Source: Caldilineales bacterium
GTDB taxonomy: Bacteria; Chloroflexota; Anaerolineae; J102
DNA: 64,000 nucleotides
Reading direction: 5' to 3'
Assembly: GCA_024102915.1 (NCBI GenBank)
Contig: JAGFJG010000016.1
Coordinates: 22,263-86,262 of the forward strand
Of this stretch, positions 30,524 through 62,694 are shown one piece after another; position 1 is the stretch's first letter; every line of letters starts with the position of its first letter. The notes beneath the pieces are model-generated. The model saw only the letters and a list, made by a program, of their open reading frames with translations, ran no database searches and was not told the origin of the DNA. The position numbers and the translations under genes are program-made.

Positions 30524-30551
30524 ACAAGGTTAGCAGCCCTCACCCCTGCGG

Positions 30552-46470: not shown

Positions 46471-48054
46471 TTAGTTGGTCAGCACAGGCGCCAGCTTGTG
46501 GCATTCCGTACAGGCTTCCGCCGGAAATCCCTCGGTCACATGGAATTCGGTGTAGGGGCGCAGACCGTCGGGGCCATGACAGTTGAGACATTGGCCGATG
46601 CGCTGATCATCCAGCGGGTGCGGGATGCGCGGCACGAATTCGGCATCCGGCGTTGGCGCTTCGATCACCGGCTCCGACGACTCTGTCGGTTCGGGCAAAT
46701 AGCTACGCAAACCCGGCGCATTCAATCCGGCGTAAACCCATTTGGTGCCATGACAAGCGCTGTTGGCGCAGAAGGAACTATTATCGGAGCCGCCGCGATT
46801 GTACGTGCTGTGACAGCCCACGCAGGTCTCATCGAACTCTTCGCGGTGGCGGGCCAACCAGTTGCTGTCCATGTGCGATTCTGGCTCCGTACCGCTTTCC
46901 AGGGCGATGACAGGGGCGGGCAGACCAGGACCGGCCACGCGCGGGATCGAATGGCAGATGTTGCATTCCAGGCGGATGGTTTCGCCCTCGGGGCTGACAT
47001 GTTTGCCGTCGTGGCAGCGGAAACAGCCGGGGTCTTCAAGATGCCCGACATTGTTGGGATGCGTCTCCCAACCGACCTGCATCTCCGGGAAGAAGGACTC
47101 CCCGGCCTGTCGCTTGATCTCCTCGATTGCTTTGGCGATCAGCGCTCGGTTTTGCTCGTAGTATTCAGGATAAGTCGTCTTGTACCACGTATCCAGATTC
47201 TCGACAGCGGCATTGAGAGTCTCATGGCTTTCATGTTTACTGGTGAGGATGTTGACTGCCTGGGCCCGGATAAAGGGAATGCTAGGGTCGATGATGCCCT
47301 TGGAAATCGCCTCATCGATGGAACGGTTGGGGTGTTCGAATTTGTGAGAGATGCGGTTATGGCAGTCGATACAATCCATCCGTCGCAGGTTTTGCTCATT
47401 CTCGGCCACATACTCAGGCGTGATATCCGATTCCAGATCGTAGTATTCGGTGACGCGCCCCTCAGCATCCACCTCGCGCACATAGGGGATATCCTGCTTG
47501 AGAGGATCGTTGGGCAGGAACCAGACCTCATTTTCGACATGCCAGTGGATGCCACGGCCCAGGCCCTCGCGGGAGCTGCCGCCGCCCGTTTTCAGGGCGA
47601 GAATCGTACGGCGTTCGGTGTTTCTTTCGTCATTGCCAAAACTTTGGATTTCCTTAACCGAATCATTGGAAAACTTGTCTGGGTTGTGACACTGTTCGCA
47701 GGTATCGCGGGCAGGGCGAAGATTCCTCACATAGATCGGGATCTCATAATCCTGGGTCAGTGCGTAGACAACGTGCCGCACTTCCATCGCCTTGCGCGGC
47801 AACGCCCGCAATACCGATTCCTGGCCCAGATGGCAATCGACGCAGGCCACGCGGGCGTGCGGCGAATGTTGGTAGGCGACATATTCTGGCGGCATCGTGT
47901 GACAGGTGGTGCCGCAAAACTCCGTGCTATTGGTGTATTCCCAGGCCGTCACGCCGCCCGCGAAGACGGCCATGCCTATGAGCAAGAGAATGAAGAGCGA
48001 GACGAGAGTGAGTTTCCAGTGTTCTCTCACCCAGCGGAAGAATCGGCGGATCAT
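46471..48054 (-). CDS. NapC/NirT-family membrane-anchored multihaem cytochrome c, extended (10 haem motifs)
   Basis: An N-terminal TM helix is followed by the NapC/NirT-like tetrahaem spacing. Eight CxxCH motifs are present (CVDCH, CEQCH, CIDCH, CFRCH, CNICH, CVGCH, CLNCH, CTECH). Two variants are also present: CGTTCH (Cx3CH) and CANSACH (Cx4CH). Confidence 0.8.
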   Translation of the reverse strand: MIRRFFRWVREHWKLTLVSLFILLLIGMAVFAGGVTAWEYTNSTEFCGTTCHTMPPEYVAYQHSPHARVACVDCHLGQESVLRALPRKAMEVRHVVYALTQDYEIPIYVRNLRPARDTCEQCHNPDKFSNDSVKEIQSFGNDERNTERRTILALKTGGGSSREGLGRGIHWHVENEVWFLPNDPLKQDIPYVREVDAEGRVTEYYDLESDITPEYVAENEQNLRRMDCIDCHNRISHKFEHPNRSIDEAISKGIIDPSIPFIRAQAVNILTSKHESHETLNAAVENLDTWYKTTYPEYYEQNRALIAKAIEEIKRQAGESFFPEMQVGWETHPNNVGHLEDPGCFRCHDGKHVSPEGETIRLECNICHSIPRVAGPGLPAPVIALESGTEPESHMDSNWLARHREEFDETCVGCHSTYNRGGSDNSSFCANSACHGTKWVYAGLNAPGLRSYLPEPTESSEPVIEAPTPDAEFVPRIPHPLDDQRIGQCLNCHGPDGLRPYTEFHVTEGFPAEACTECHKLAPVLTN

Positions 48055-48176
48055 ACGGAAGGATTACCTCGGAGGGATAGTCAGACATCGGGCGACAATA
48101 GCGCCCTGATAATGCTGATAATAACTCAAATTCAATGCAAGCCGCCAATCCAAATCTGGAGCGTTCGGAACGGAAC

Positions 48177-49541
48177 CTAGTTGTTGGGCGCACCGGCGGC
48201 AATCCACAATCGAACACGTTCCAGTTGTTCAGGCGTAAGACGGGTGGGATGCGCTTCGACGGGCATAGACTGTACAAGCAACAGGCGGCTGTGATCAGGA
48301 TCGCCGGGAATAATGACAGGCCCGGAAGCTCCGCCCTGCATCAGGCTGCGATAGCTGATCAGGTTGAGTGAACTGCTGGTACCGTGGCAGGCGACGCACT
48401 TGGCATTGATGATGGGACGGATCGAGGATGCAAAACTGGGAATGTCCAACGCCTCGACAGTGGGGAGTTCGCCATTGTTCGTTTCGAGCAATACATGACA
48501 ACTCAGGCAGGTCTCATTCCCCAAAGCCAACTCGTCATGGAAAGGCGTAAAGGGTTGGATGGCGCCCAGGCCGTGACAGGAAAGACAGTCCTCGCGTCCT
48601 TCGCTGATGGCATGGGGAATTGGCGGCGCTGCTGACCGCCGAGCCGTCATTGCCTGCTCTGGATCAGGCGTGGGCGTGGGCGTCGGCGTCGCTCGCACGA
48701 ATGCCTCGCCTTGCTCCGGCAGAGGCGGCACGGTGGCAATGGCAGTCTGCTCGTAAGTGATGAAAAAGTAAAGGACGACGACGAAAATCAGGGTCGAGAC
48801 AAAAGCGAAGGGCAGATAAATGCGTTCACGGCGGCGGATCACCTCTCGCGGCGGCTCCGGTCGGACATCCCCGGCCTCGATTCGTTCCAGCTCGCGGCCA
48901 TGTTCGTGCTCCATTTGCTCGCGCGTGAGCTTGCCGGTGAAGATGCTGCGATTGAAGGTCTTGAGATGGACGTTGTACATATGCCAGACCACAATCGCCA
49001 GAAAAGCCAGGAGGGCTTCGCCGCCATGGGCGGCCTTCGCCGCCGGAATCCAACTGCCTGGGAAAAACCGGGTGATTGAGATCGGGTTCCAGAGCATGAA
49101 CCCAGTCAACACCATCACCCCTGTGCCCCAGACCACCGCCCAGTACTCCAGCTTTTCCTCAAAGCTATAGCGATCGTACTTGGGGCGATTACGGGCCAAC
49201 CCCAGATTGTAACGGATGGCATCGATGAAATCGATCACGTCCTGGAACGAAGGCAGCATAGCGGGCGAGACGCGGCGGACATAGAGCTTGTATCCCACAG
49301 CTAGAATGTGATAGGCGCTTTCGATGATCATGATGATGGCGGCGAGGCGATGGATGATCCGCACAGTCTCGACCCCGCCCATCCAATTGATCATCGTCAT
49401 CGCCCAGGGCGCGGGCGCGTATTTCTGGGGGATGCCGGTGATGACCAGAACCGTAAACGAAACCAACAGCAGCAGGTGTTCCACCCGATCCATGCGGGCG
49501 AAACGCACATAATACTCCTTCACTTTAGAATTGGCGCTCAT
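48177..49541 (-). CDS. FdnI/HydC-like b-type cytochrome membrane subunit fused to a C-terminal trihaem c domain
   Basis: N-terminal RFARMDRVEHLLLLVSFTVLVITG plus 4-5 helices with conserved His (IIH, AHGGE..WHMY), as in formate-dehydrogenase-gamma / Ni-Fe hydrogenase cytochrome b. The tail has CLSCH, CLSCH and CVACHG...GGASGPVIIPGDPDHSRLL, which resembles the Planctomycete-type cytochrome c domain. Confidence 0.75.
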   Translation of the reverse strand: MSANSKVKEYYVRFARMDRVEHLLLLVSFTVLVITGIPQKYAPAPWAMTMINWMGGVETVRIIHRLAAIIMIIESAYHILAVGYKLYVRRVSPAMLPSFQDVIDFIDAIRYNLGLARNRPKYDRYSFEEKLEYWAVVWGTGVMVLTGFMLWNPISITRFFPGSWIPAAKAAHGGEALLAFLAIVVWHMYNVHLKTFNRSIFTGKLTREQMEHEHGRELERIEAGDVRPEPPREVIRRRERIYLPFAFVSTLIFVVVLYFFITYEQTAIATVPPLPEQGEAFVRATPTPTPTPDPEQAMTARRSAAPPIPHAISEGREDCLSCHGLGAIQPFTPFHDELALGNETCLSCHVLLETNNGELPTVEALDIPSFASSIRPIINAKCVACHGTSSSLNLISYRSLMQGGASGPVIIPGDPDHSRLLLVQSMPVEAHPTRLTPEQLERVRLWIAAGAPNN

Positions 49542-50668
49542 GCTCCCTCCCCTCCGTGTCCCTGGTCATGTCCCCGACCAAAGATGCGGCCCACGATGCG
49601 CCGGATGGCATCGAGTGAGACGAATGCGATCATGAAACCGATCGTGCCGGGAATGATCAGCAGATAGAACAGGTTGATGTAGTAGACCAGGGGGTTGTGT
49701 TCTTTGTCCGGGATATAGTGGCTGGTCCAGGAGGTGGGGAAGTTGGCGTCGGCATCGGGATGGCAGCGCTGGCATGTCACCAGCAGATTCTCTTTGACGA
49801 CCAAGGCATTCGGATCATCGATCGCCTTGATATTGTGGATGCCATGACAGTCATAACAGACTGCCTTGTTGGTTAGCTGATCGGGTGACTGCCGCTCGAA
49901 TAGCGTGACCGTCGTGCCGTGGAAATCAGCCACATAGGTATTGAACACATCGGTCGAAATCCCATACTTCGACATCAATGCTTCATCGGCATGGCATTCG
50001 CCGCACAACTCCGGCGATTTGATGCGGAATTCGGCTGTGCGCGGGTCTTCCATGCTGTGCACCCCATGACAATCCACGCAAGTGGGCACATCCGGATTGC
50101 TCTCATCGAACAAAGCGGCGCCATGAACGCTTTCTTTATAATTATCGAAGATCGTGGCGTGGCACTGGCTGCAAGTGGCCGAAACCTGCTGGCGAGGTTC
50201 GTGGGGATTGCTTATATCATGGCTGCCATGACAATCGGTGCAAATGGCCGCATCGCGGTTGCCGCCCGCCAGCAACTTGGCATGCATCGAGTCCAGGGTG
50301 GCGTCGTATTGCTCGGAATGGCAGTTACGACAGGCCTCATAACGGTCGATCTGGAAGTCGCGGCGGCTGTTCGCATTGAGCGGCGGATGCGGATAACCGG
50401 AGATATTTGTATGGCAGGCGGTGCAGGTCAGGTGCTCTTGCCCGTGAACCGAATCACTGAAAACTTCGGCATCGACATAGAGCGACATCACCTCGCCATT
50501 CGCCAGTTCGATCTCGCGGTCGGGAATGCCATGACAGGCAAGACATGTATTGTTGGGATCGCCGCTCTGGGCTGGCGGGGCGGCTTGCGTTGTTGGAATT
50601 CCGGCAAGAAAAAGGAGCGCCAGGGCCAGGGTGAGGGCCGCGATGGGCAGGCGGGAAAGGAAGGGCAT
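49538..50668 (-). CDS. Nonahaem c-type cytochrome with signal peptide and C-terminal membrane anchor
   Basis: Nine CxxCH motifs (CLACH, CTACH, CRNCH, CTDCH, CSQCH, CVDCH, CGECH, CYDCH, CQRCH). Signal peptide ...AGIPTTQA. C-terminal helix LFYLLIIPGTIGFMIAFVSL. The stop overlaps the cytochrome b start by 4 nt. Confidence 0.85.
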   Translation of the reverse strand: MPFLSRLPIAALTLALALLFLAGIPTTQAAPPAQSGDPNNTCLACHGIPDREIELANGEVMSLYVDAEVFSDSVHGQEHLTCTACHTNISGYPHPPLNANSRRDFQIDRYEACRNCHSEQYDATLDSMHAKLLAGGNRDAAICTDCHGSHDISNPHEPRQQVSATCSQCHATIFDNYKESVHGAALFDESNPDVPTCVDCHGVHSMEDPRTAEFRIKSPELCGECHADEALMSKYGISTDVFNTYVADFHGTTVTLFERQSPDQLTNKAVCYDCHGIHNIKAIDDPNALVVKENLLVTCQRCHPDADANFPTSWTSHYIPDKEHNPLVYYINLFYLLIIPGTIGFMIAFVSLDAIRRIVGRIFGRGHDQGHGGEGA

Positions 50669-50693
50669 TGAAGTGAGTCAGCGGGAGGGGTAA

Positions 50694-50754
50694 AGGTATT
50701 GGTAAATTGGGTATCGGATATTAGGGGCTATCGGCCAAATACCCAATACCCAAT
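50694..50754. repeat. Heptamer-based hairpin inside the cytochrome operon (28-haem / 9-haem spacer)
   Basis: ATTGGGTAT (50706-50714) is perfectly complementary to ATACCCAAT (50739-50747). The flanks read GGTATTG GTAAATT GGGTATC GGATATT ... ACCCAAT ACCCAAT. Confidence 0.55.
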
Positions 50755-50765
50755 CAGTTTTCAAC

Positions 50766-53700
50766 TTACTGTGGCCGGTAATACTTGATGCCGGCGCTGG
50801 GGTGGCAGGTGTTGCAGCGGTTGGTGTAACCCGTCTTCGTAACCTGACCGAAGGCGCCGGTGGCGTCCTGACCATGGGTGATGCCTATGTCGGCATAGGT
50901 CATGGCCGGATAATTGACGCCGTCAGCCGTCGATTTGACGCCGTGCGGATCGTGGCAGGTGACGCAGCTTGGCTTCGATTCTTTCGTGCCGTCGCCGTCG
51001 CTATCCCAGGCCAGTTGGTTCATGTCGAGATGATCCCAATGGATGTTGGCAGGCACATTACCGAAGTAAAAGCCCTGCGCCGACTCGTTTCGGAAACTCG
51101 TGATGACGGGATCGACCTGAAGAGGATATCCGGCAGGCGGCGGATTGGAATGCGTAAACAACGCGTTGCTGTATCCTGGCCCCATCCCCACCTGGTTGGG
51201 TTCCAGATGGCAGGTGTAGCACAGTGCGTAATTCGACTTCTGATAGGATTCAGAATCGGTGATTGGCACGTTCAGCCCGCCGAAATTAAGCCAGAGAGCC
51301 TGCTGGTAATTATCAGCAGCGGCCTTATAAGTTTGGGCTACGCCATCGAAATGGATGCTGTTCTGCCCCTTCTGATGGCAGGTTATGCAGGCGAAACCCT
51401 TACTGCCGTGGCCGGTGACGGCGAAGCCGTAAGTCGAACCATCGCCTACCACGTTGGGAGCGGGAACGCCCTTGACCATGGCCGGAGCGTTATCGTGGCA
51501 GCCTTCGCAGCTTAAAGCGCCGCCGCTCGACCACTTGCTCTTCGCCTCGGCCACGCCATTCACAGCGCCGCCAGCGCTATGGCAATCATTACAGACGGCA
51601 GTGCTCGACAACGTCTTGCCGTCGGCAAAATTGACCTTGCCGTTGACGTGATCTTCGCTGGGGTAGTTGCTGTGGCAGGTATTGCAAGACTGAATACCGG
51701 GGCCCTGGTTGGAGCTGTCGAAGTGGCGGGCGTGCGCGCCGCTGGTCAAATCCTGCGCATTGACGCCGTGACAGGTTCCGCATGTGCCGCTGGCCGCATT
51801 GCCCCAGAGCGGGGTGCTGAACTTCGGCGTGCCGGGTTGTTCCCGGCTGGCCGCGCCGTCGGAATGGCACAGGCTGTTGGCGCAGGTCAGATCATTCGAT
51901 CGGAAGGCCGAATTATCGATGCGCCCGAAAACGTCCTTGACATTCATCGCCACCTGTTTCTGGAAGTCAACATGATTGTCGATATTCGCCACGGCATCGT
52001 TATTGTTGTTCTGCGCCGTCACGCTATGGCATTCGAAACACCCGATGGAATCATCGCCCCGGTCTTTGTAGTTGGGCGTCAGGTGTTTTCCATGGCTGCC
52101 TGTGGTGAGATTGGTCTGATCATTATGGCATCCGGCACAGGTCAATGTTGCGCCTTCCGCCCAAACCGGATTCTTGTACACCAGTTGACCAGTGCTGGGT
52201 GCGCCGTTGCTGTGGCAACCCACCGTAGCACAGGTGCGCGACGTGCGATCATAGCTGCCGCCGGGATTCAGCGAATCGAAGAATACATCCTGGAACGAAG
52301 GCGGCGAGGTGATGTGACCGCTGTAACCGGGGGCGGCATCATTGTGGCAGGCGCTGCATTCCAGCCCATATTGGCCGGGATCATCACCCGCATGGATGAG
52401 ATGAGGAGTCAGATTTTCGTTGAGGGGATAATCATTGCGGCTGGCCGGCGGCGGCGGCGTGCCATGACAGGCGTCGCATCCGCCCACAGGCATAAACGCA
52501 TCCGCCGTTCCCGGAACGCCATCCGTTTCGTGCCTGTGGCAAGAGGTGCAGTCGGCGCCCTCGAAGTGGGGGTTCTCATTCCAATTGCTGGGATTGCGGT
52601 TGTGCGCAGTCGTGGTATGGCAGGTGGCGCAGAGATCGTTGGCGTTGTTGTCGCCCGGCGGATCAAAGCTGAACTCACCGGTCCGGGCCAGGAAAGCCAC
52701 CGGATTGTTGCGAATCTGAGGGCGAATGGCGCTCAGATTGCTGCTGCCATGCGCGTTGTGGCAATTGACGCATGTCTCCACAAAGGGGTCTTGTGTGGCG
52801 GCGTCGAAAGCCTGATTGCCGTGGGCGCTGACATCCATGCCCGCGCGGCTGGAGTCGGCATGACAGCGAGCGCACAATTCGTTTGGCGGAGCCAGCAGTC
52901 GAGGGTTGGACGCATCCGTAAAGTGGGGGGCGTCAGGATTGTGGCAGCTCTGGCAATCAACGCCAGACGCTGCGCCATGTCCATTGACCGCCCAGAACTG
53001 ATCGACCGCCGGTGCGGTCTTGCCGTGCAACACGCCGGGTTTGATGCTGTTATGGCAACCTGTGCAATCCTCGATCTCGCGGTTCGCTCGCCACGCCGAC
53101 TTGGCTTCCAATACGCCCTGCGGCGTGCCGTGGCAGTCATTGCAAACGGCAGTCTGATTCAAGTCCTTGTTGTCCGCCATGTTGACCCAGCCGTTGTAAT
53201 GGCCCTTGTCGGTCCAGTTCTTGACTTTGGGATGACAGGCGGTGCAATTATCCAGGCCAATGTCGGCCTGTTCGTGGCGGCTGTGGGCGCTATTCCCCGG
53301 CGGCGTACCATGACAAGCGCGGCAACTCTGCGGGTTGACGTAGAATCCATCCGTATGCGGATGACACCTGGTGCAATCCTGATCTTCGTAATGGGTCTTA
53401 TTGGCCGATGTGCTGTGATAATTGGTCGTCGTATGACAGGTCTCACAGATAGCCCATGATCCGCCGTCAAAGCGACGGCCATCAAATCGCACCTCTTTGC
53501 CAAAGATCGCCTTCTGGATAAGGGCGGCGTTGTCGGTTTTGGCGTGCGGTTCATGGCACGTTGCGCACTCATTCTGCTTATGCGTCAGAGCCGTGGGATG
53601 GCAGGAGTAGCAGGCGGTTTCCGGGTCGGTCACCAACACATGCGGCTGATGACAGGTCATGCAACTGCTGGTCGATGCACTGTAATTGCCATGCGGATTG

Positions 53701-53837: not shown

Positions 53838-53843
53838 CGTGGG

Positions 53844-55604
53844 CTATCTCCGTGCGGTGGGTGGGGAGGAGGGAGCCTGGAATGAGTGGCACTCGATACA
53901 GAGGGCGTCGCCCGCTGCTCTCAGGTCAAAGTCATGCTGCGTGCCGTGCGGGCTGTGGCAGCTTACACAGGACAGTCCCTCTCCGATGACGGGATGGAAA
54001 CCGTGCGGCAAACCGCTATGGCAGGATTCGCAGAGGGCGTTGGTGCGATTTTTCAGCAGGCCATCGATGTTGCCGCTATGGGCGTTGTGGCAGGCGGCGC
54101 ATTGCTCGCGCAATTGGGTGGAATGTTTGCTGTTGGCGAATGTGGCGGCCTGGCCGCTATGGCATTCGCCGCACAACTGCCGCGCCGAAGTCTGCAACAA
54201 ATCCGGGTGACTGCTGCTGTGCGATACATGGCAGGATGTACAATCCCCGGAAGCGACCGGCTGATGTTTGATAGCGCCCTGTTGCAAGTCATGGCAGTCG
54301 GTGCAGATATTGCTTGCCACCGCCGCCAGGGTCGTTCTGCTCTTGCCGTGGAATTCGGTGTGGCACTGTGCGCAATCGCCCGCGGCCACCGGTTCGTGCG
54401 TGCTGCCGGATGAAGCCAGCACGATATCGCTATGACATTCGACGCAGGTCTCGGCCAACTGCGTTCCCGAAGTTTTCGGCTCGTGCGGCGAATGGCAGGA
54501 GGTGCAGGATGGCAGTTTGTCGGCGGAATGATTGGCGAACGTATGCTGCGTGTCGAACTGCTCGGTGTGGCAGGTCTTGCAGATCGCATCCTCCGACTGC
54601 ACCAGGAGGTTGGCGTTGTTGCTGCCATGCCCATCGTGGCAAAGCAGACATTCACCCACGGCCAGGCTGGGATGCGGTTGGCTCACCATCTGCCCGTGAT
54701 CTTGATGGCATTCGTTACAAGATGCCGCCTGGGTCTCGGCCAGCAAGGGTGCATCCGGCCCCTGGTGGAATCCGCCATGACAATCAGAGCACTTGCCTTC
54801 GGCAAATGGCTGGTGCGGATGACTGAAGCTGTCCGGCTCCGGCAGATCGGTATGGCATTGTTCGCAGGCTTCCCGGTCCAGCGTCATCTCTGAGGGTGGA
54901 TGGGGGTCGTGCGGATCATGGCATAGGCTGCACTGGATGTTTTCATCCTGGGCATGGCTGGCGAAGCTAATGGACGGATCCGTCTGATCGGTATGGCAGG
55001 TTCCGCACAATTTCTGCTGAGGCTGGCGCAGGATAGCGGCATTGTCGGAACCATGCGACACATGGCAAAGATTACACTCGCCCGCGGCCAGGTCGGGATG
55101 CGGTTGATCGATCTCGCCACCCAAATCCTTGTGACACTCATTGCAAGCGTCATTGACATTCGTGACCATGAGCGCGGGATAGGCGCTGGCGTGGGGATTA
55201 TGGCAGGAGGTGCAATCCCCGCGGGCGAATGGCTGGTGCGGGTGACTGACCGGCGATTCGGGATCGGGCAAATCCTGCCAGTGACAATCCCGGCAAACAG
55301 CATCCTGCGTCCCCCACAACTGTTTTGGATCCGACCCGCTGAGATCATGGCACGCGCCACAGGCCCCATCCCCAAACGGCGGATGCACGTAATCCAGGCT
55401 ATCCAAAGGCGCTGGACCCAAACCCGCCGCGATCGCATCAGCTGGCGGCGTGGGCGTGAAAAAGGGCGTCGGCGTGGGTGTGGGCGTCCCTTCCGGCCCG
55501 GAATCGCGACGACAGCTATTGAGGACGAGGATCGCCAGGATTAATAGCGCTGTCAGAGCTGCAATAGGAAGAAGGCGGCGCCAGCGCTGCGAGTGCAATG
55601 TCAT
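53844..55604 (-). CDS. 22-haem c-type cytochrome, probable lipoprotein with Pro/Thr linker (polymer of c7/c3-like modules)
   Basis: 22 CxxCH motifs. N-terminal LLILAILVLNSC is a lipobox-like Cys, followed by GTPTPTPTPFFTPTPP. The unit HP(H/D)xP(F/L)AxGxCxxCHxxH...CxxCH recurs about 7-8 times. Confidence 0.85.
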   Translation of the reverse strand: MTLHSQRWRRLLPIAALTALLILAILVLNSCRRDSGPEGTPTPTPTPFFTPTPPADAIAAGLGPAPLDSLDYVHPPFGDGACGACHDLSGSDPKQLWGTQDAVCRDCHWQDLPDPESPVSHPHQPFARGDCTSCHNPHASAYPALMVTNVNDACNECHKDLGGEIDQPHPDLAAGECNLCHVSHGSDNAAILRQPQQKLCGTCHTDQTDPSISFASHAQDENIQCSLCHDPHDPHPPSEMTLDREACEQCHTDLPEPDSFSHPHQPFAEGKCSDCHGGFHQGPDAPLLAETQAASCNECHQDHGQMVSQPHPSLAVGECLLCHDGHGSNNANLLVQSEDAICKTCHTEQFDTQHTFANHSADKLPSCTSCHSPHEPKTSGTQLAETCVECHSDIVLASSGSTHEPVAAGDCAQCHTEFHGKSRTTLAAVASNICTDCHDLQQGAIKHQPVASGDCTSCHVSHSSSHPDLLQTSARQLCGECHSGQAATFANSKHSTQLREQCAACHNAHSGNIDGLLKNRTNALCESCHSGLPHGFHPVIGEGLSCVSCHSPHGTQHDFDLRAAGDALCIECHSFQAPSSPPTARR

Positions 55605-55948
55605 GCTTTACAAAGAATCCAGGGAATGATTAGGGCATTATAACGCAGAATGAGAAATGTGAATATGATATTAATCAGGTTCCTAGTGCGCAAATTGTGA
55701 CACATGGATCGGACAGACCCTTCATCATGGAGGATAATCTGCCGCGCGTGCATCCGAATATGCCTTGTTGCATCAAGAAATAGTCCATCGAAGTCGAAAC
55801 AAGTGCAAAAATTACCTCCAATTATGACAAAGATCATGTCGCAACTTAGAAACGAGTGCTATTCTATTTTAACGTGTCAGTTCAGGCTGACAGTCGGGAA
55901 TAGTTTATAAGGCCAAACTTGCCACTATCTTGAACGGAGGCGACTCAC
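55605..55948. promoter_or_regulatory. AT-rich divergent control region between the two cytochrome operons
   Basis: A 344-bp non-coding, visibly AT-rich spacer between the divergent starts at 55604 (-) and 55949 (+). It contains the palindrome TGTGACACA (~55696-55704) and the hairpin TGTCAG-ttcagg-CTGACA (~55875-55892). Confidence 0.4.
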
Positions 55949-56416
55949 GTGAAAGACCCAGTTCAGATTTTCAACAACGAGCAGAAAACCGATCGTCGTG
56001 GATTCCTGAAGCTTTTGTTGGGTTTTTCCGGGCTGGTCACAGCCGTTGGCGTTCTCACGCCCGTGATCGGCTATTTGTGGCCGCCTAAGCAGGCGTCGAC
56101 AGTAGGCGCTGGCCGGGTGCCGGTAGGATCGACCGAAGAATTTCCTGTGGGGCAGGGCAAGGTTGTGCCGGTGGATGGCAAACCAGTGATAATTGTAAAC
56201 ACAGATCAAGGCGGATTAACCGCCTACTCAGCCGTCTGCACGCATTTGGGCTGCGTTGTGGAATGGGACGATAGAAGGCAATTCATTCTTTGCCCCTGCC
56301 ATGATGGACGATTCAACGCCATCAATGGCGCTGTAATCTCTGGCCCGCCACCCACGCCTCTGCCTGAATTGCCCCTCGTCGTGGAGCAGGATACCGTTTA
56401 CGTCTCACCCGCCTAA
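55949..56416 (+). CDS. Rieske [2Fe-2S] subunit with twin-arginine signal
   Basis: GTG start with GGAGG 8 nt upstream. Tat motif DRRGFLKLLLG. Cluster boxes CTHLGC and CPCHDGRF. Confidence 0.9.
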   Translation: MKDPVQIFNNEQKTDRRGFLKLLLGFSGLVTAVGVLTPVIGYLWPPKQASTVGAGRVPVGSTEEFPVGQGKVVPVDGKPVIIVNTDQGGLTAYSAVCTHLGCVVEWDDRRQFILCPCHDGRFNAINGAVISGPPPTPLPELPLVVEQDTVYVSPA

Positions 56417-56445
56417 ATCTCATCGATCAATTCGCAGGAGGCGAC

Positions 56446-57507
56446 ATGGAGGCTAAGAAATCGAGCTTTAACCGGATGTGGGATTGGGTGGATACACGTT
56501 ACCGTGCCAATGAACTGATCCAGGCGCTGCTTCACGTCGAGATCCCGCGCTCGGCCAAAACTTTCTATTTCGGCGGGATCACACTCTTCTTTTTCATCGT
56601 CCAAGCCGCAACCGGCATCCTGCTGTCTATTTACTATCAGCCATCGCCCGATTCAGCTTTTAACAGCATTCTTTTCATTATGAATAACGTGCGCTTCGGC
56701 TGGCTGATCCGCAGCATTCACGCCTGGAGCGCCAATCTCATGGTGCTGTTCTGCGTACTGCATCTGCTGCGCATTTTCTTCCAGGCAGCTTATAAGAAGC
56801 CCAGAGAGATGACGTGGGTATTTGGCGTAGTCCTGTTGGGCGTAACCCTGGTGTTCGGTTTCACAGGCTATCTCTTGCCCTGGGACCAACGGGCTTACTG
56901 GGCGACAGTGGTAGGAAGCGAGATCGCCGGGGCGTTGCCCATCGTGGGCGGGCAACTGCTCACCTTCCTGCGCGGCGGCGCTGACATCACCGCAGCAACC
57001 CTGACCCGATTTTTCGGCATCCATGTACTCATACTCCCGGTTACTCTGGCGCTGGTGCTGGTCATCCATATCACGATGGTGCACCAACAGGGCCTTGCTG
57101 ACCCCAAACGTGAAAAAGTGGATGACCAGTCGCGCAAAAAGAGGCTCCTGCCTTTCTTCCCGAATTATGTACTCGATGAAATGATCGCCTGGTATCTGAT
57201 GCTGGCCGGATTAATCGTACTGGCATCCGTTTTCCCCGGCGGATTGGAGGAACCGGCCGACCCCCTGCGTACGCCCGAACACACAAAACCGGAATGGTAT
57301 TTTCTTTTCCTCTACCAGGCCTTGAAAGTAGTGCCTCGCATCATCGGCGTCACTTTGCCCATCATCGGCGGCATTCTCTTGTTATTACTGCCATTCATCG
57401 ATCGCAGCCCCTATGTCGAACTCAGGAAACGTCCTGTGGCTCTGGCGGTGGGCGTTATCTGCGTGGCTGGCATTGTCGGATTCACGATATGGGGCTGGCT
57501 AAGCTAG
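56446..57507 (+). CDS. Cytochrome b, fused b6 plus subunit-IV type
   Basis: AGGAGG RBS. Haem ligands are spaced H-x13-H (IHAWSANLMVLFCVLH) and H-x14-H (IHVLILPVTLALVLVIH), which is the b6 pattern. The PEWY motif (KPEWYFLFLYQ) sits in the subunit-IV-like C-terminal part. Confidence 0.9.
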   Translation: MEAKKSSFNRMWDWVDTRYRANELIQALLHVEIPRSAKTFYFGGITLFFFIVQAATGILLSIYYQPSPDSAFNSILFIMNNVRFGWLIRSIHAWSANLMVLFCVLHLLRIFFQAAYKKPREMTWVFGVVLLGVTLVFGFTGYLLPWDQRAYWATVVGSEIAGALPIVGGQLLTFLRGGADITAATLTRFFGIHVLILPVTLALVLVIHITMVHQQGLADPKREKVDDQSRKKRLLPFFPNYVLDEMIAWYLMLAGLIVLASVFPGGLEEPADPLRTPEHTKPEWYFLFLYQALKVVPRIIGVTLPIIGGILLLLLPFIDRSPYVELRKRPVALAVGVICVAGIVGFTIWGWLS

Positions 57508-57523
57508 CACAGGGAGCAATGTC

Positions 57524-59476
57524 ATGAACCATCGGCTTCGCACTCGCCTGCTTATCCTATCGGTGCTGCTGATTGCCGCCGGTATCGCATCGACCCTGAC
57601 GCTGGCGCAAGGCACGCCCCCAACGATCCCGCATCCGCTCAAGAATTACCGCGGCTGCCTGGTTTGCCACGGCACGGGATTGGCCAGCGCGCCCCAGGTC
57701 CCCGACAGCCATGATGGCTTCGAAAATGAAATCTGCACTTCGTGTCACCTGACCGGCGAAGAGGCGGCCGAGCAAAGCGGCGCTGCGGCTGCGGGCCCAG
57801 GCCCAGAGCAGATTCCGCATCCCATTGAGGGGCGCGAGAACTGTGTGCAGTGCCATCAACCTGCCGAGGGCGGTGAAATCATCCCCGCCGCCGCGGGTGC
57901 GCCTGCGATACCACACACTTTGGAAGGTCACGATAAATGCCTGGCCTGCCATCAGGAAGGCGTGGGCGGCGCACCTCAAATGCCTGACGACCACGCCGGG
58001 CGCACAGAAGAGATTTGTCAGGCCTGTCATCAGCCTGGTGGCACGATGACAGTTGGTGGAAGCGGTGAAGGCGGAGCGCCCAACATCCCTCACACACTGG
58101 TGGGGCGAGATGATTGTTTGGGTTGCCACGAACAGGGGTTCGGCGGCGCACCCCAAATCCCTGACGACCATGCCGGGCGCAGCAATGACATCTGCCAGGC
58201 CTGTCACCAATCCACCGAAGCAGCGCCTGAGGCAGCGGAACCGATCGCCAGCGGCCCCATCCCCACGCCCATTCCCCACCCGCCGGTACAGGACACGGAT
58301 TCCTGCGTAGCCTGCCACGAGGCATTGGAAGGAGCGCAGGGGCAGGTGACCGCCGATTGGGCGATGAGCATCCATGCCGAGCGTGATGTCTCTTGCGCGG
58401 ATTGCCACGGCGGCGACCCCACTGCCTCTACCGTCAATGAATCAATGGACCCGGCAGCGGGTTATATCGGCGCTCCTGATAAAGCTGACATTCCAGCACT
58501 GTGCGCCAGTTGTCACGCCGACGTGAATTTAATGCGCCAATATGATCTGCCCACCGACCAGTGGGCCAAGTATCAGGAAAGCATCCACGGCATCCAGCTT
58601 GCCCGCGGCGATGAGAAGGTCACGACCTGTTACGATTGCCACGGCGGGCATAAAATCCTCAAGGCCAATGACCCGGCTTCCACGGTTTATGCCAGTAATG
58701 TGCCAGCATTGTGCGCCGGATGCCATTCTGATCAGGAATTGATGCGGCCTTATGGCATCCCCACCGACCAGTATGACCTCTACCGTGAAAGTGTGCACGG
58801 CATCGCTCTGCTCGATCATCAGGATTTCCGGGCGCCCAATTGCGCCACCTGTCATGGCACCCACGGGGCTGCGCCTCCGGGTTTCAATGAGGTGAGCAAT
58901 GTCTGCGGAAGCTGCCATTCCGCCACGCAAGAACATTATCTGCAAAGCGCCCACGCCAATGTCGAGGGCGGCCCTGAATGCGTGACCTGCCATGGCCGCT
59001 ATGATGTGGGCGTGCCCGACGACTCGATGTATCTGGGTTCAGAGCCGCGACACTGTGGTTCGTGTCATCCCGAAGACAGCCCGGAAGGCCAGATCGTTCA
59101 ATCAATCTATGACAATATCACGCAAGCGGACGCAGCTTACGAGGAAGCAGAAAACCGGGTGGAAGGGGTGAAACGCCTGGGCATGCTTGTATTGGACGAG
59201 GAGGGCCGCTTGCAGGAATCGAATACAAAACTGATCACGGCGCGGGCTTTGCAGCATACCACCGACCTGGCAACGGTGAAGGAAAAGACCGACGAAGCGG
59301 CAAGCCTGGCGAATGAGGCCAAACAAGGCGCTGACTCCGCCGCCGCTGAAAACCTGTTCCGGCGGCAAGCGATGGTGGTCGCCGTCATCGCCATCGCCTT
59401 CGCCATCGGCGCTCTCTATCTATTGAAGCGAGAGCTAGATCGGCGGTTGGAACGCGAGGATGCCCAGGAGCAGTAA
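57524..59476 (+). CDS. 16-haem c-type cytochrome with signal peptide, coiled-coil and C-terminal membrane anchor (c subunit of the Rieske/cyt b complex by position)
   Basis: 16 CxxCH motifs. The N-terminal half holds about five IPHx(5-7)CxxCH modules, three of them in near-identical dihaem units (...IPHTL(E/V)G(H/R)D(K/D)CL(A/G)CH(Q/E)(E/Q)G(V/F)GGAPQ(M/I)PDDHAGR...ICQACHQ). C-terminal helix AMVVAVIAIAFAIGALYLL. Confidence 0.85.
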   Translation: MNHRLRTRLLILSVLLIAAGIASTLTLAQGTPPTIPHPLKNYRGCLVCHGTGLASAPQVPDSHDGFENEICTSCHLTGEEAAEQSGAAAAGPGPEQIPHPIEGRENCVQCHQPAEGGEIIPAAAGAPAIPHTLEGHDKCLACHQEGVGGAPQMPDDHAGRTEEICQACHQPGGTMTVGGSGEGGAPNIPHTLVGRDDCLGCHEQGFGGAPQIPDDHAGRSNDICQACHQSTEAAPEAAEPIASGPIPTPIPHPPVQDTDSCVACHEALEGAQGQVTADWAMSIHAERDVSCADCHGGDPTASTVNESMDPAAGYIGAPDKADIPALCASCHADVNLMRQYDLPTDQWAKYQESIHGIQLARGDEKVTTCYDCHGGHKILKANDPASTVYASNVPALCAGCHSDQELMRPYGIPTDQYDLYRESVHGIALLDHQDFRAPNCATCHGTHGAAPPGFNEVSNVCGSCHSATQEHYLQSAHANVEGGPECVTCHGRYDVGVPDDSMYLGSEPRHCGSCHPEDSPEGQIVQSIYDNITQADAAYEEAENRVEGVKRLGMLVLDEEGRLQESNTKLITARALQHTTDLATVKEKTDEAASLANEAKQGADSAAAENLFRRQAMVVAVIAIAFAIGALYLLKRELDRRLEREDAQEQ

Positions 59477-59530
59477 GATTGGATCATCGAAAGATTGCAC
59501 TCCCACATCGCTTCATAGGACAGGAGAAAA

Positions 59531-60343
59531 GTGAGAGTCAAAAATAAAATCATCGTGGTTACGGGCGGCGGGAATGGCATGGGGCGCGAGCTTGTCTTGA
59601 ACTTGCTTGTCAGAGGCGCCAGCGTAGCAGCCGTCGACATCAGTGAAGCTGCACTGCAGGAAACAATCGAACTGGCAGGCGACAAAAGGGGCAGCCTTTC
59701 AACCTATGTGGTAGACATCACCAACAGAGATGCGGTGGCGTCGCTCCCCGAACAGGTCATTGCCAGGCATGGAGCCGTAGATGGCCTCATCAACAATGCC
59801 GGGATCATCCAACCCTTCGTTCGTGTCAACGATCTGGATTATGCCGCCATCGAGCAGGTGATGAATGTCAATTTCTATGGAACTCTTTACATGACCAAAA
59901 CATTCTTACCCCACCTTCTAAAGAGACCCGAAGCGCATATTTCAAACACATCCAGCATGGGCGGATACCTGCCTGTCCCCGGACAGACGATCTACGGAGC
60001 CACGAAAGCGGCCATCAAGTTATTCACCGAGGGATTGCACTCCGAACTCCTGAATACCAACGTCAAAGTCACCGTCGTATTTCCCGGCGCTATTGGCACC
60101 AATATTGCCGCCAATTCGGGCGTCGGGGACTCGCTAAATGTTTCCAGTGAAGACAGCCAGAGGTCGTTTCGGCCATTGGCCGCCAGTAAAGCGGCGCAAA
60201 TCATCCTCGATGGCATCGAGAAAGATCGGTACAGCATTTTCGTGGGGCGGGACGCACGATTCATGGACTTATTGGTCAGGATCAGCCCAAAACGAGCCGC
60301 GAATTATATTTTCAAGCAGATGCAATCGCTCTTGCCAGCCTAA
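59531..60343 (+). CDS. Short-chain dehydrogenase/reductase (SDR)
   Basis: GTG start with AGGAGA upstream. TGGGNGMG cofactor motif, NNAG, and the catalytic Y-x3-K (YGATKAA). Confidence 0.85.
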   Translation: MRVKNKIIVVTGGGNGMGRELVLNLLVRGASVAAVDISEAALQETIELAGDKRGSLSTYVVDITNRDAVASLPEQVIARHGAVDGLINNAGIIQPFVRVNDLDYAAIEQVMNVNFYGTLYMTKTFLPHLLKRPEAHISNTSSMGGYLPVPGQTIYGATKAAIKLFTEGLHSELLNTNVKVTVVFPGAIGTNIAANSGVGDSLNVSSEDSQRSFRPLAASKAAQIILDGIEKDRYSIFVGRDARFMDLLVRISPKRAANYIFKQMQSLLPA

Positions 60344-60420
60344 CATGATGGTGATTTTAGAGGTTCGTCTTTCCTGATTATAGCGATTGAATATCAGGTT
60401 TTCCTGGTCGCAACAAAATC

Positions 60421-60460
60421 GCATAAACAACAATCGGGCGCTCCAGGTGGAGCGCCCGAT
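60421..60460 (-). terminator. Strong hairpin terminator after the decahaem gene (between convergent genes)
   Basis: Perfect 12-bp stem ATCGGGCGCTCC (60433-60444) / GGAGCGCCCGAT (60449-60460) with loop AGGT. On the minus strand, TTGTTGTTTATGCGATTTTG follows. Confidence 0.65.
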
Positions 60461-60492
60461 CGTACGGTGTAGACAGGGGTGATGGATGTGTT

Positions 60493-62694
60493 TTACTGGG
60501 GTCGGGTCTTGCCAGTGGTCAATCCATCGGCGTAGTCGGACATCTCCAGATCTTCGAGATTGTCGAAGAGAGCCTGACCGACGTACTTGTTGTTGTGAGC
60601 GAAAGCGCCTGGATCCTTCAGGAAGTACTGGTAATTGTAGGCTGCGCGCAGCAGGCGAGGCGTCCAGGTGCTATAGCGAGCGCCCGAACCATTGAACCAG
60701 TAAGGATAGCGGCTGCCATCGTAGACGATGTCGTCGGAAACCGGGTTGGCGGTGGCGTAGGTCTGCATGCCCGCGTAGAGTGCTGCTGCAAGTCCTTCCA
60801 ATTCGCCATTGACGCCTTCAGCGGTGTTGCCATCGCCATCGTAGTCAGGTGTGGTGGCCCAACGGATGTTCTTGAGATCATCGGGGCTGCCGAGCGGGCC
60901 GTGGCAGGCGGTGCAAGCCTGGTACTCGACCTCAAGTTCGTGCACATTGTGGCAGTCTTCGCAGGTTGCAAACATACTGCCGCCGAACGGATGCTTGTTC
61001 TGGCCGACGTAGGTCTTGCCTTCGAACTCGTAGATGCCGTTGGTGACATTGCCGAAGAGCGTAGCGCCCGCAGCGAAGTAGTGGACGTTGATGAAGCCCT
61101 GACCAGTGTCAAGATCATCATCACCGACACCGGCTGTGGCATCGTCGATCTGGCCGCCATAGGCGCGACCCTGGTGGCACTGGATACACAGGTTATTGTC
61201 CTTGTCGCCGCCCTTCTCCAGACTGACATCAGCGCCGTTCGGGAAGGTCACTTCATCGAACACCCAGCGGTCCGGCCAGGATTCGCCGTTATGACAGGTG
61301 GTGCACATCATGCCGTTGGCGGCTTCCTGGGTGATGCTGACGCCTTCTTTGACCAGGAAGGGAATGCCGTCGGCGCTATGGCATTTGCTGCAGCTTCCGG
61401 GCACTTCGTAGTCATCCCCGTCCCAATGCCGCCATGCTTCCTCGGAACCGGCGAAGTGGCCGGGGTCGATGCGATGGGCATTGCTCATGTCCACCTTATT
61501 GGTGATGGCCTCATTCAGATCGCCGATCGAATCATGCAGCAATTGGATGACGTACTTGCCATTGTGGGCGAACTTGCCGGGGTCCTTCTGACCAACCTGA
61601 TAGTTAAATGTCGCTTTCATCAGGCGAGCAGTATAGGCATTGTAGTTTACGGCGGGATCATCCTTTACGTTATCGCAGTTTGCATCGACGAACCAATAGG
61701 GATGGCTACTCGAATCGTAAACGATGCATTTCTGAGACACTTCCTCTGCATAATCCTGAATTGCTCCGTAAAGAAGCGCCTGTAAACCTGCGATCTCTTC
61801 GCCCACGCCTTCCTCGTCATTACCATCGCCGTCATAATCGGCCAGCGAGCCCATCATGCGCACCATATCGAAATCATCTGCTGATTCGACATCGGCGTGG
61901 CATTCCTGGCACTCCGTGAGCTTCAGTTCCAGCGTGTGCATGTCATGGCACTCGTAACACTGATCGTATTGTTCGACATGGCGGAAGTTGATATCGTAGC
62001 TCATGCCTTCATATTCATAGCCGCCATGCACCAGTGCGCCGTATTGCGTCGCCGCCGCAGCGAAGTAATGTATATTCTGGAAGGAAGCGGTTGGCTCGAC
62101 TGCGTCCACATCAGCAGTCATGCCCTTCCCTTCCAGATAGGTGTCAACCTGCGGTCCAGACGAACGTCCTTGATGGCATTCCATACAGCGGGATTCATCG
62201 CCCAGGTTCTCGATAGTAACGCCAGAGGGGAATTTGACGCTTGTCTTGTGCAGGGTGACGTCGTTGTGGCAGGCCACACATTCGACTGTAGACCCCACAG
62301 GAGGCGCTACTTCAACAGAGCCAGCGGCGCTGCCATCCGCGCCCAAGAAGTCCAGGTAGCCTGGCGTGCTGTGGCACTTGGCGCAGCTCGTTTGAACGAC
62401 GCCGGCATCATCCCAGTGCCGGAAAGCTTCAGCGTCATGGTCATTGTGCGGAGAATTCGCCCAACGATCCAGGAACGGCACTTCTACGGCCACACCCGTG
62501 CACGGTGATAACTGGTAGGGCATGAATAGTTTGACCGGCAGTTCTCCGCCTTGCAACGCCGGCCCTATCAGCGATGCTTGCGGACAAACTGGGTTGAGGT
62601 CAGGCGCAGCCGCTTGCGCAGAACCGCCGCTCACCACGAGCAGCAGGGCCAATGCAAGCGCCAAAGCGCCCAAAATCGTGTATCTTCCTTTCAT
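60493..62694 (-). CDS. Secreted decahaem c-type cytochrome built from two tandem pentahaem halves
   Basis: Start ATG 62694 (MKGRYTILGALALALALLLVVSGGSAQA) with AGGAGG upstream. There are 10 CxxCH motifs, 5 + 5. Both halves share WRHWD, SC(A/S)KCHS, CxxCHQGR, N(I/V)HYFAA, DYDGDGN, PYWF and KDPGxFAHNxKYV. Confidence 0.85.
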   Translation of the reverse strand: MKGRYTILGALALALALLLVVSGGSAQAAAPDLNPVCPQASLIGPALQGGELPVKLFMPYQLSPCTGVAVEVPFLDRWANSPHNDHDAEAFRHWDDAGVVQTSCAKCHSTPGYLDFLGADGSAAGSVEVAPPVGSTVECVACHNDVTLHKTSVKFPSGVTIENLGDESRCMECHQGRSSGPQVDTYLEGKGMTADVDAVEPTASFQNIHYFAAAATQYGALVHGGYEYEGMSYDINFRHVEQYDQCYECHDMHTLELKLTECQECHADVESADDFDMVRMMGSLADYDGDGNDEEGVGEEIAGLQALLYGAIQDYAEEVSQKCIVYDSSSHPYWFVDANCDNVKDDPAVNYNAYTARLMKATFNYQVGQKDPGKFAHNGKYVIQLLHDSIGDLNEAITNKVDMSNAHRIDPGHFAGSEEAWRHWDGDDYEVPGSCSKCHSADGIPFLVKEGVSITQEAANGMMCTTCHNGESWPDRWVFDEVTFPNGADVSLEKGGDKDNNLCIQCHQGRAYGGQIDDATAGVGDDDLDTGQGFINVHYFAAGATLFGNVTNGIYEFEGKTYVGQNKHPFGGSMFATCEDCHNVHELEVEYQACTACHGPLGSPDDLKNIRWATTPDYDGDGNTAEGVNGELEGLAAALYAGMQTYATANPVSDDIVYDGSRYPYWFNGSGARYSTWTPRLLRAAYNYQYFLKDPGAFAHNNKYVGQALFDNLEDLEMSDYADGLTTGKTRPQ

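Follow-up and report, generated by a model that had tools for sequence, protein, structure and literature searches.

What is the function of a dense block of multihaem cytochrome genes in a bacterium of the Chloroflexota, and where would the electrons that it carries go? The block in question, called the island below, lies in a 64,000-nucleotide stretch of contig JAGFJG010000016.1 of a Caldilineales bacterium (GCA_024102915.1); this whole stretch is referred to as the window. Haem motifs were counted in the translations of the listed open reading frames (ORFs), and proteins were assigned by profile searches, hydropathy and comparison with solved structures. Seven cytochrome genes with a total of 94 CxxCH motifs and four Cx3-4CH variants were found, a recount identical to that of an earlier sequence-only reading of this DNA. 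In all six frames, 95 CxxCH motifs are present in the island (46471-62724), against two in the 46 kb upstream (1-46470) and none downstream (62725-64000), which excludes a chance accumulation.

The genes, numbered g1 to g10 (Table 1), can be divided into four modules: M1 (g5 and g4), M2 (g3, g2 and g1), M3 (g6, g7 and g8) and M4 (g10). All seven cytochromes have a signal peptide or a membrane anchor, based on hydropathy and on alignment of the N- and C-termini. The parts belong to known families, while the combination itself is uncharacterised. As judged from the encoded proteins, the island could form a chain that carries respiratory electrons outward through the cell envelope (outward extracellular electron transfer, EET); we prefer this reading to each of its alternatives, although we find the odds for and against it about level. 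That the modules work together is suggested above all by their repeated co-oriented linkage in other genomes. The sequence-only reading had proposed an EET system as well. It gains from the resemblance of the parts to known EET proteins (g5 to MtrA, g10 to the OcwA fold, g1 to NrfH, g3 with g2 to CbcL), and the outward path is our inference.

Quinone-interacting modules

The product of g1 matched the NapC/NirT family (PF03264) with 51.7 bits against a cut-off of 24.1. Hydropathy indicated a single N-terminal transmembrane (TM) helix (17-35), and residues 26-124 could be aligned to NrfH (2j7a_C, E 2.9e-8). In this alignment, the Met of the haem-1 CH-x-M (CGTTCH-T-M versus CTSCH-I-M) and the quinol-site Lys (LPRKA versus LPFKA) are kept; the haem-1 motif of g1 is a Cx3CH, with an insertion of one residue, and Asp89 of NrfH is not retained. 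Six more haem motifs follow the NrfH-like tetrahaem core, and g1 is therefore predicted to be a membrane-anchored quinol dehydrogenase of the NrfH/NapC type, extended to ten haem motifs. ImcH of Geobacter sulfurreducens is likewise a multihaem quinol dehydrogenase of this type. It carries three TM helices and seven haems, with haem 1 of the His/Gln type, and for its homologues 1-3 TM helices and 5-10 haems are reported. With one TM helix and ten motifs, g1 differs from ImcH itself and lies within the range of the homologues; its haem 1 is NrfH-like.

The two other genes of M2 are adjoining, with the start of g2 overlapping the stop of g3 by 4 bp. The product of g3 is predicted to be a nonahaem cytochrome c that begins with a signal peptide and is anchored by a TM helix at its C-terminus (TM helices 7-25 and 333-351, the latter kept in orthologues). 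For g2, a match was obtained to PF01292 (Ni_hydr_CYTB; 43.4 bits, cut-off 30.1) and, under its cut-off, to TIGR01583 (formate dehydrogenase gamma; E 7e-12). His residues are located in TM helices 1, 2 and 4, a fifth TM helix is present, and PSCyt1 matched residues 382-421. These features point to a dihaem cytochrome b of the FdnI/HydC type with a fifth helix and an outward-facing trihaem c domain. Together, g3 and g2 are interpreted as a split CbcL-like unit: Geobacter CbcL likewise joins a nonahaem c to an FdnI/HydC-type dihaem b, which in the CbcL/MtoC/MtrH group has 5-6 TM helices. Compared by architecture, CbcL is one fused polypeptide, whereas here two genes and an extra trihaem domain are found. 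Fused homologues of the 9-haem c and the b (716-726 amino acids) are encoded in L011 and L013 (Verrucomicrobia) and in L018, an unclassified metagenome-assembled genome (MAG). The g3-g2 pair is retained in about 40 metagenome loci and is essentially invariant among the contigs examined.

In M3, g6 matched the Rieske domain PF00355 (E 9e-14) as well as PetC-type models; it has a twin-arginine translocation signal (RRGFLK), a TM anchor and the cluster-binding boxes CTHLGC and CPCHDGRF. A Ser and a Tyr raise the potential of Rieske proteins in bc1 and b6f complexes. Both residues are absent from g6, so that a low-potential centre of the menaquinol type would be expected. The following gene, g7, matched PF00033 (E 3.6e-54) and PF00032 (E 4.9e-15), shows the b6-type spacing of the b-haem ligands (His92/106 and His193/208) and has an intact Qo-site PEWY at 282. 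The haem-ci cysteine is absent, the protein reading FYFGG where b6 has FYCLGG. The product of g7 is predicted to combine a b6-like cytochrome b and a part resembling subunit IV in one polypeptide. Its partner is not a monohaem c1/f or a dihaem c, but the 16-haem g8, which starts 17 bp after g7. With its signal peptide, its 16 haems and a C-terminal TM anchor kept in five orthologues, g8 would sit directly behind g7 in the place of cytochrome c1/f.

Unconventional Rieske/b complexes are present in anammox bacteria, where those of Kuenenia (R/b-2 and R/b-3) have multihaem subunits, and in Firmicutes, where QcrC of Bacillus is a subunit IV fused to a cytochrome c. Complexes of these types likewise combine a b6-type b with multihaem partners; the complex of the island differs by lacking a haem-ci cysteine and any HAO-like or flavoprotein subunit, and by a c subunit with 13-16 haems of apparent bis-His type and a C-terminal anchor.

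Against the equivalog model for ExtP (NCBIfam NF040969), g7 scored 233.6 bits, and the cut-off of 290 was not reached. ExtP is the cytochrome b of the Geobacter extHIJKLMNOPQS cluster, which further includes the Rieske protein ExtO, ExtQ, the 12-haem ExtM, the 10-haem ExtN, ExtKL and ExtS; the cluster has been linked to selenite and tellurite reduction, and its bc-like part is itself uncharacterised. Like the island, it places a Rieske protein and a b6-like cytochrome b beside further multihaem cytochromes, which have 10 and 12 haems in the ext cluster, and beside a cytochrome that is a lipoprotein. In contrast to the ext cluster, the island has no porin (ExtI), rhodanese or selenoprotein, its b6 and subunit IV are fused, and NrfH-like, CbcL-like and 22-/28-haem proteins are added. 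The sequence-only reading knew of no characterised system with this combination of genes. No matching one was found by us either in the literature covered, while the ext cluster provides a precedent for a Rieske/b pair beside 10-/12-haem cytochromes. Its assignments to NapC/NirT, FdnI-type b and Rieske/cytochrome b were recovered by the profile searches, and its three distinct quinone-interacting modules can be located in g1, g3 with g2, and g6-g8 based on profiles, structure alignment and residue checks.

Table 1. Genes and intergenic elements of the cytochrome island, with positions in the window
Feature	Position	Strand	Description
g1	46471-48054	-	527 amino acids; 8 CxxCH, CGTTCH and CANSACH
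g2	48177-49541	-	454 amino acids; 3 haem motifs
g3	49538-50668	-	376 amino acids; 9 haem motifs
g4	50766-53837	-	1023 amino acids; 26 CxxCH, CATVGCH and CANSLCH
g5	53844-55604	-	586 amino acids; 22 haem motifs
Intergenic region separating the divergent g5-g1 and Rieske/cytochrome b operons	55605-55948		presumed shared control region
g6, Rieske protein	55949-56416	+	
g7, cytochrome b	56446-57507	+	
g8	57524-59476	+	650 amino acids; 16 haem motifs
g9, short-chain dehydrogenase/reductase (SDR)	59531-60343	+	
GC-rich hairpin between the convergent g9 and g10	60430-60463		15-bp stem, 10 G-C pairs
g10	60493-62694/62724	-	733/743 amino acids; 10 haem motifs; ORF open to TTG at 62724

Large cytochromes and haem ligation

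The Paired_CXXCH_1 domain was found ten times in g5 (E 1.3e-90), and the DmsE family model TIGR03508 matched over five stretches with 222.6 bits (cut-off 192.2). In addition, g5 matched the 333-residue chain A of 6r2q (E 2.6e-13), which we take to be MtrA of the Shewanella Mtr complex (the chain is labelled oddly in the PDB file). A lipobox Cys and a Pro/Thr linker are kept in L002, L079 and L078. Based on these matches, g5 is predicted to be a 22-haem, MtrA/DmsE-like lipoprotein of about ten doubled-CxxCH units. The same units build MtrA/DmsE of the Shewanella MtrCAB system, from which g5 differs by having 22 haems instead of 10, by its lipid anchor on a Pro/Thr linker and by the absence of an MtrB-type barrel. 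The ten haems of MtrA span about 8 nm; a linear arrangement of the 22 haems of g5 could by analogy reach about 17 nm. The pattern PxIPH...CxxCH...H...CxxCH, which occurs in the distal parts of both g1 and g2 as well as at the beginning of g8, was considered as a docking module and rejected, as it is a generic doubled-CxxCH unit which is also present in g5.

Its neighbour g4 exceeded the cut-offs of PF09698 and TIGR01904 and is a giant member of the CxxxxCH/CxxCH family. About 25 close homologues were found, all in Chloroflexi MAGs, and a comparison of the g4 sequence with the PDB gave nothing meaningful. The N-terminus shows a VTA|LQ-type cleavage site, so that g4 is probably secreted after cleavage of the signal peptide and its tethering is doubtful. 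The sequence-only reading had regarded both large cytochromes as tethered to the envelope; this would hold for the lipoprotein g5, the only clear case of the two. The C-terminal third of g4 (residues ~700-1022, with NIHWDHLDMN...WDSDGDG) is the region that recurs most widely in other giant cytochromes, which reach ~4000 amino acids, and may represent a distinct terminal domain. In a representative library, 1077 clusters match g4 at E < 1e-3. Upstream of a g5-like/g4-like pair in L080 (3383-8320), a domain of the EB_dh type (ethylbenzene-dehydrogenase gamma-like, haem-b-binding) lies inside a multihaem cytochrome of 1645 amino acids; an EB_dh protein also adjoins a g10-like gene in L120 (3357-4532).

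The remaining large cytochrome, g10, is a tandem duplication of a pentahaem module of ~330 amino acids, with halves that are 40% identical (E 3e-67). More than 3865 homologues were found, and all ten motifs and ten further His residues are invariant in the 52 homologues that were compared. An AlphaFold2 (AF2) model was obtained with a pLDDT of 84.8. Its best PDB match by Foldseek was OcwA (6i5b; E 2.9e-3, prob 1.0, TM-score 0.33, 329 columns, 16% identity), and matches to the NrfA fold were non-significant (E > 1). Neither the sequence nor the profile of g10 matched NrfA, OcwA or anything else meaningful in the PDB. OcwA is the terminal reductase in the cell wall of Thermincola, a Gram-positive metal reducer, and also reduces nitrite and hydroxylamine; it is a nonahaem protein, whereas g10 is a duplicated decahaem, and the fold match is weak. 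The product of g10 can be considered a secreted decahaem and a candidate for a terminal or peripheral cytochrome.

Both halves of g10 contain an invariant NxHY(F)AAxAT, followed by DYDGDGxxxEG, which resembles a Ca-binding loop, and by KDPGxFAHNxKY. This twice-repeated pattern could be the sign of a structured site and not of a haem that simply passes electrons on. Relatives of g10 in L006 (8322-10511), L029 (6723-8930) and L120 (4928-7129) are lipoproteins. The linkers of the first two are rich in Cys-Pro repeats, e.g. CPECPACPEAQACPACPEAEPCPEP, while the one of L120 is rich in Thr, Ala and Pro without such repeats; g10 of the window has a plain signal peptide and one CP.

The haem motifs themselves are well conserved. 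All motifs of g1 to g5, including the four Cx3-4CH variants, are kept in orthologues at 50-65% identity (for g1, ten out of ten in four relatives), and for g8 13 of the 16 are universal in seven orthologues. As the motifs of g10 are invariant as well, the possibility raised with the sequence-only reading that the motifs are not conserved in homologues was not borne out by the comparison. The orthologues of g8 have 13-14 motifs, and g8 has an extra dihaem repeat at about residues 107-165; for g4, 28 motifs compare with 34 in orthologues which are ~230 amino acids longer. The haem numbers of g8 and g4 thus vary because repeat units have been gained or lost. Outside the motifs, six cytochromes have at least as many conserved His residues as haems; the exception, g8, has 12 invariant His and three invariant Met for 13 universal motifs. 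This is consistent with haems that are mainly of the bis-His transfer type.

These data bear on an alternative in which a soluble compound is turned over catalytically at the end of the chain. Here g10, the foremost candidate, or a haem of g4 or g8 would act as a reductase or oxidase of the NrfA, OcwA or octahaem type on nitrite, hydroxylamine, nitric oxide, sulfur oxyanions, selenite or the like, and the other cytochromes would deliver electrons within the wall space. Such a role would suit the tandem pentahaem modules of g10, its fold neighbours (OcwA, then NrfA), the activity of OcwA towards nitrite and hydroxylamine, and the very large and strongly conserved g10 family with its repeated NxHY...DYDGDG; g8 shows a weak match to NrfA (3ubr, E 6e-5), and g7 resembles ExtP from a cluster linked to selenite and tellurite. 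However, neither CxxCK, absent from every island protein, nor another known catalytic haem motif was found, g10 has ten invariant extra His for its ten haems, its NrfA fold matches are non-significant and no NrfA or OcwA profile matched. The 50 further haems of g4 and g5 would be hard to justify for a soluble substrate, and long relatives of g10 (1030-1300 amino acids) bear surface domains of the immunoglobulin-like Big_2/invasin type. We consider this alternative unlikely.

Genes for a porin or for a molybdopterin, Ni-Fe or haem-copper oxidase protein were not found in 46471-62724, either in the ORF list or in profile searches, which agrees with the sequence-only reading. Its concern that a catalytic subunit had been missed can be put aside in so far as the profile searches of the block showed no non-haem catalytic subunit. 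The same searches did not find the Alternative complex III subunits ActB and ActC/F (NrfD-like) in the island.

Linkage of the modules in other genomes

For the cytochrome b, for g4 and g5 and for the adjoining penicillin-binding protein, the nearest relatives all come from Chloroflexota MAGs labelled Anaerolineae, Caldilineales or 'Chloroflexia'. An eight-gene core, consisting of the Rieske, b and multihaem c genes and, divergently, the 22-haem, giant, 9-haem, b/3-haem and NrfH-like genes, is syntenic in L002/L003 (GCA_041918515.1), L004 (ERZ13693045) and L079 (GCA_029782215.1) and partly present on L081 and L082. In several MAGs its order is kept at 50-70% protein identity, and the divergent layout around the intergenic region is repeated in L002, L004 and L079. 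The combination is thus not unique to the window, since the eight-gene core is found in at least three other Chloroflexota MAGs. No paper on the cluster in Chloroflexota, Caldilineales or Anaerolineae was found in a literature search of incomplete coverage, by which absence is not proven.

Outside this core, the modules are recombined. About 15 loci of Anaerolineae MAGs carry M3 (Rieske, b and 13-16-haem c), and in ten of these M4 lies alongside as a g10-like gene; M2 and M3, in part with M4, form a single operon in L009, L085, L098, L107, L113, L120, L122 and L128. Genes similar to g10 adjoin M2 or M3 in about 20 loci. In L077 such a gene lies next to a set of NrfH-like, cytochrome and FdnI-b genes; in L078 it is followed by a g5-like lipoprotein gene and then a g4-like gene, and L080 has a g5-like followed by a g4-like gene. 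An operon recurrent in metagenomes has the order [g10-like], 9-haem, FdnI-b, Rieske, b6, [subunit IV with seven class-I c domains] and NrfH-like, often with an octahaem/NrfC/NrfD set nearby; NrfCD modules were found only in such related loci. A variant form of the trio of quinone modules is present in Verrucomicrobia (L011, L013) and in Ignavibacteriota (L021). In the latter, a diderm, a putative porin gene comes after the homologous cluster and has multihaem cytochrome genes on its flanks; its product is taken for a porin because it ends in Phe and shows amphipathic strands as well as a signal peptide. All four modules together were found in the window alone among the loci examined.

In the operon variant that is commoner in metagenomes (L085:5303-7453; also L098, L107, L113, L120, L122 and L128), the cytochrome b is split and subunit IV is fused to seven class-I (cbb3/c-type) domains in a protein of 627-728 amino acids, like a seven-fold Bacillus QcrC. 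A HisKA_3 kinase and a LuxR-type regulator adjoin the Rieske/b and g10-like genes in L006 (2242-4370), L120 (1057-3190 and 18390-19040), L009, L029, L033 and L062. This pair is usual beside M3 and M4 loci, and none is adjacent in the window. In L002, L004 and L079 a conventional QcrABC-like complex comes directly after the core (L002:19938-21746, L004:19814-21620, L079:18159-21777). It consists of a 278-amino-acid Rieske protein, a 537-amino-acid cytochrome b and a 381-amino-acid cytochrome c, the last a multi-domain class-I c with three stretches each of PF00034 and PF13442. Its position is occupied in the window by a gene for a penicillin-binding protein of 1091 amino acids (42861-46136, minus strand).

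It could be argued from these loci that there is no single system, and that independent respiratory modules with separate pathways were clustered or acquired horizontally as a mosaic. The modules are indeed separate or otherwise combined in other loci, g10 and g9 lie outside the conserved core, and other loci add modules of the NrfCD or QcrABC type. Yet the same modules are repeatedly co-oriented and joined in one operon in distant lineages, the eight-gene order is kept at the identities given above, the genes are tightly spaced (7 bp between g5 and g4, overlap of g3 and g2, 17-30 bp in the Rieske operon), and the GC content of the island is like that of its flanks. A mere clustering is therefore regarded as very improbable.

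Apart from the cytochrome and Rieske set, g9 is the only gene of the block. It encodes a cytoplasmic SDR (PF00106, E 5e-50), is missing from the syntenic L002, L004 and L079, and is probably a passenger outside the system. On a contig of Candidatus Abyssobacteria (L076:3449-4243), an SDR gene is convergent to a g10-family gene as in the window. A link between SDR and g10 was rejected, as the two SDRs share a generic 30% identity and the gene is absent from the syntenic loci, so that the arrangement is probably a coincidence. The hairpin between g9 and g10 is likely a two-way terminator; it was the sole notable element in the promoter and terminator scans, whose counts were not above those of shuffled sequences, and promoter-like matches in the divergent intergenic region are no more than the chance level.

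The genes flanking the island are ordinary housekeeping genes. Candidate cytochrome-maturation genes were rejected: a TPR match to CcmH/CycH at 38531-39373 is surrounded by glycosyltransferase, DUF92 and phosphoribosyltransferase genes. A 560-amino-acid ORF antisense to g1 and longer than it (46498-48180, plus strand) was unsupported and is typical of spurious antisense frames in high-GC DNA. Elsewhere in the window, two tandem MoeA (molybdopterin molybdenumtransferase) genes were found (16209-17681 and 17762-19702, the second fused to a PBP_like domain), and no molybdoenzyme gene was seen in the window. An uninterrupted ORF of 516 amino acids (10838-12388) belongs to the MttB family (trimethylamine methyltransferase-like), presumably of the non-pyrrolysine type. 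Three large genes of signalling or surface type are consecutive at 24229-32723: a STAND NTPase with FGE-sulfatase (902 amino acids), a Ser/Thr kinase with PD40 (1081 amino acids) and a PQQ-like beta-propeller (723 amino acids).

Proposed path and direction of the electrons

The outward path can be pictured as follows. The host would be a monoderm Chloroflexota of the Anaerolineae/Caldilineales type with an extracytoplasmic multihaem network. Menaquinol would be oxidised by g1, by g3 with g2, or by the Rieske/b complex g6-g8; the g1 route would be electroneutral, as for ImcH and NrfH, and the Rieske/b route would be a Q cycle with the highest ratio of protons per electron. From the anchored haem domains (g1, g2/g3 and g8), electrons would pass to g5, g4 and g10, which would bring them through the wall. 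The acceptor would lie beyond the cytoplasmic membrane and could be, for example, a mineral of Fe(III) or Mn(IV), humics, an electrode or another cell as partner. As for ImcH, CbcL and CbcBA, the three outlets may suit acceptors of differing potential with differing energy yield. In Geobacter these proteins are potential-tiered quinol oxidases of the inner membrane for extracellular respiration and, likewise, parallel quinone modules feeding multihaem carriers; their genes are scattered, whereas the outlets of the island are clustered, with Rieske/cytochrome b as a third. The sequences themselves show the protein families, the export signals and anchors, the conservation of the motifs and the recurrent linkage of the genes; the partners, the flow direction, the acceptor and the potential tiers are all inferred. 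A more specific scheme can only be offered tentatively and is, in our opinion, rather doubtful: a Q-cycle complex hard-wired via its 16-haem subunit into a wall-spanning 22-/28-/10-haem relay would form, together with the NrfH- and CbcL-like dehydrogenases, a three-gear, potential-graded outlet or inlet in porin-less Chloroflexota.

A porin-free multihaem relay from the membrane through the wall to a surface reductase is also the arrangement of ImdcA, CwcA and OcwA in Thermincola potens. That pathway has no Rieske/cytochrome b or CbcL-like partner, and the haem numbers of the island are far larger. No PDB sequence match to nanowire subunits of the OmcS, OmcE or OmcZ type was found for g4, g5 or g10. 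The island would thus work like known systems yet does not seem to belong to any of them, considering the split CbcL-like unit, the absence of a porin, the 22 haems of g5, the ExtP score below the cut-off and the weak OcwA fold. For the phylum, a survey of 2018 reported one ImcH homologue and no CbcL homologue in Chloroflexi, CbcB-CbcA fusions in Chloroflexi were described in the CbcBA paper, and for Anaerolineales of anode communities, large multihaem cytochromes unaccompanied by porins are mentioned in the literature.

The same hardware could also be used for inward or bidirectional flow. Electrons would then be taken up from Fe(II), from a mineral acting like a cathode or from a partner in syntrophy, the CbcL- and NrfH-like modules would reduce menaquinone, and the Rieske/b complex would run in reverse (uphill) or feed a high-potential branch. 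The sequence does not fix the direction of flow. According to the literature, homologues of CbcL/MtoC/MtrH and CymA are known from both Fe(III) reducers and Fe(II) oxidisers, and Ardenticatena, the only electroactive isolate of the Chloroflexi, produces anodic as well as cathodic currents; the conventional bc-type complex adjoining the core in the syntenic MAGs would fit high-potential terminal acceptors. On the other hand, no iron-oxidation marker of the Cyc2, MtoA/B or Fox type was found in the block by profile searches, the best precedent for three quinone modules in parallel is provided by the quinol oxidases of Geobacter, and FdnI-type b and NrfH are classically tied to a turnover of quinol/quinone in which the acceptors lie on the outer side. 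Inward flow is accordingly considered quite improbable.

Several observations weigh against outward transfer as well. OcwA has open haems, which are catalytic, although its number of His residues suffices; the count of conserved His is therefore a weak argument and does not exclude open haems in the island. With g10 structurally near NrfA and OcwA, the view of the sequence-only reading that the chain seems to end in the cytochromes themselves is at best tentative. The fold neighbours of g10 are enzymes (NrfA) or a bifunctional reductase (OcwA), and its identity of at least 45% across the top 120 matches is unusually high for a pure electron carrier. The AF2 model of g4, built with 24 homologues, reached a pLDDT of 49, so that a wire-like shape of g4 is hypothetical, and sortase, S-layer or other wall-anchoring signals were not seen on g4 or g10. 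The QcrABC-like complex adjoining the core may mean that the neighbourhood is a mere respiratory gene cluster, and the seven class-I c domains in the Rieske/b variant point to high-potential soluble partners. Finally, the monoderm envelope is an assumption taken from literature on Anaerolineales and Ardenticatena.

In sediments, aquifers and digesters as well as on anodes, Chloroflexota of the Anaerolineae type rank with the most abundant bacteria, and their large cytochromes were noted earlier without a defined pathway. Together with its relatives, the island offers a list of parts that can be tested: the three outlets for quinol, g5 as a wire tethered by lipid, g4 as a secreted giant and g10 as a highly conserved decahaem similar to OcwA. 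If outward transfer is correct, it would show how electrons can leave a bacterium without a porin-bearing outer membrane, and the complex g6-g8 would be the first Rieske/cytochrome b Q-cycle complex dedicated to outward transfer, with consequences for the energy yield of mineral respiration. The more specific hard-wired scheme, if true, would represent a type of EET machinery undescribed so far, its trio of quinone modules being conserved in numerous Anaerolineae without cultured members and found as variants in Verrucomicrobia and Ignavibacteriota. The g10 family (>3800 homologues) and the g3-g2-Rieske-b-g1 operon could then possibly serve as markers of this capacity in metagenomes.

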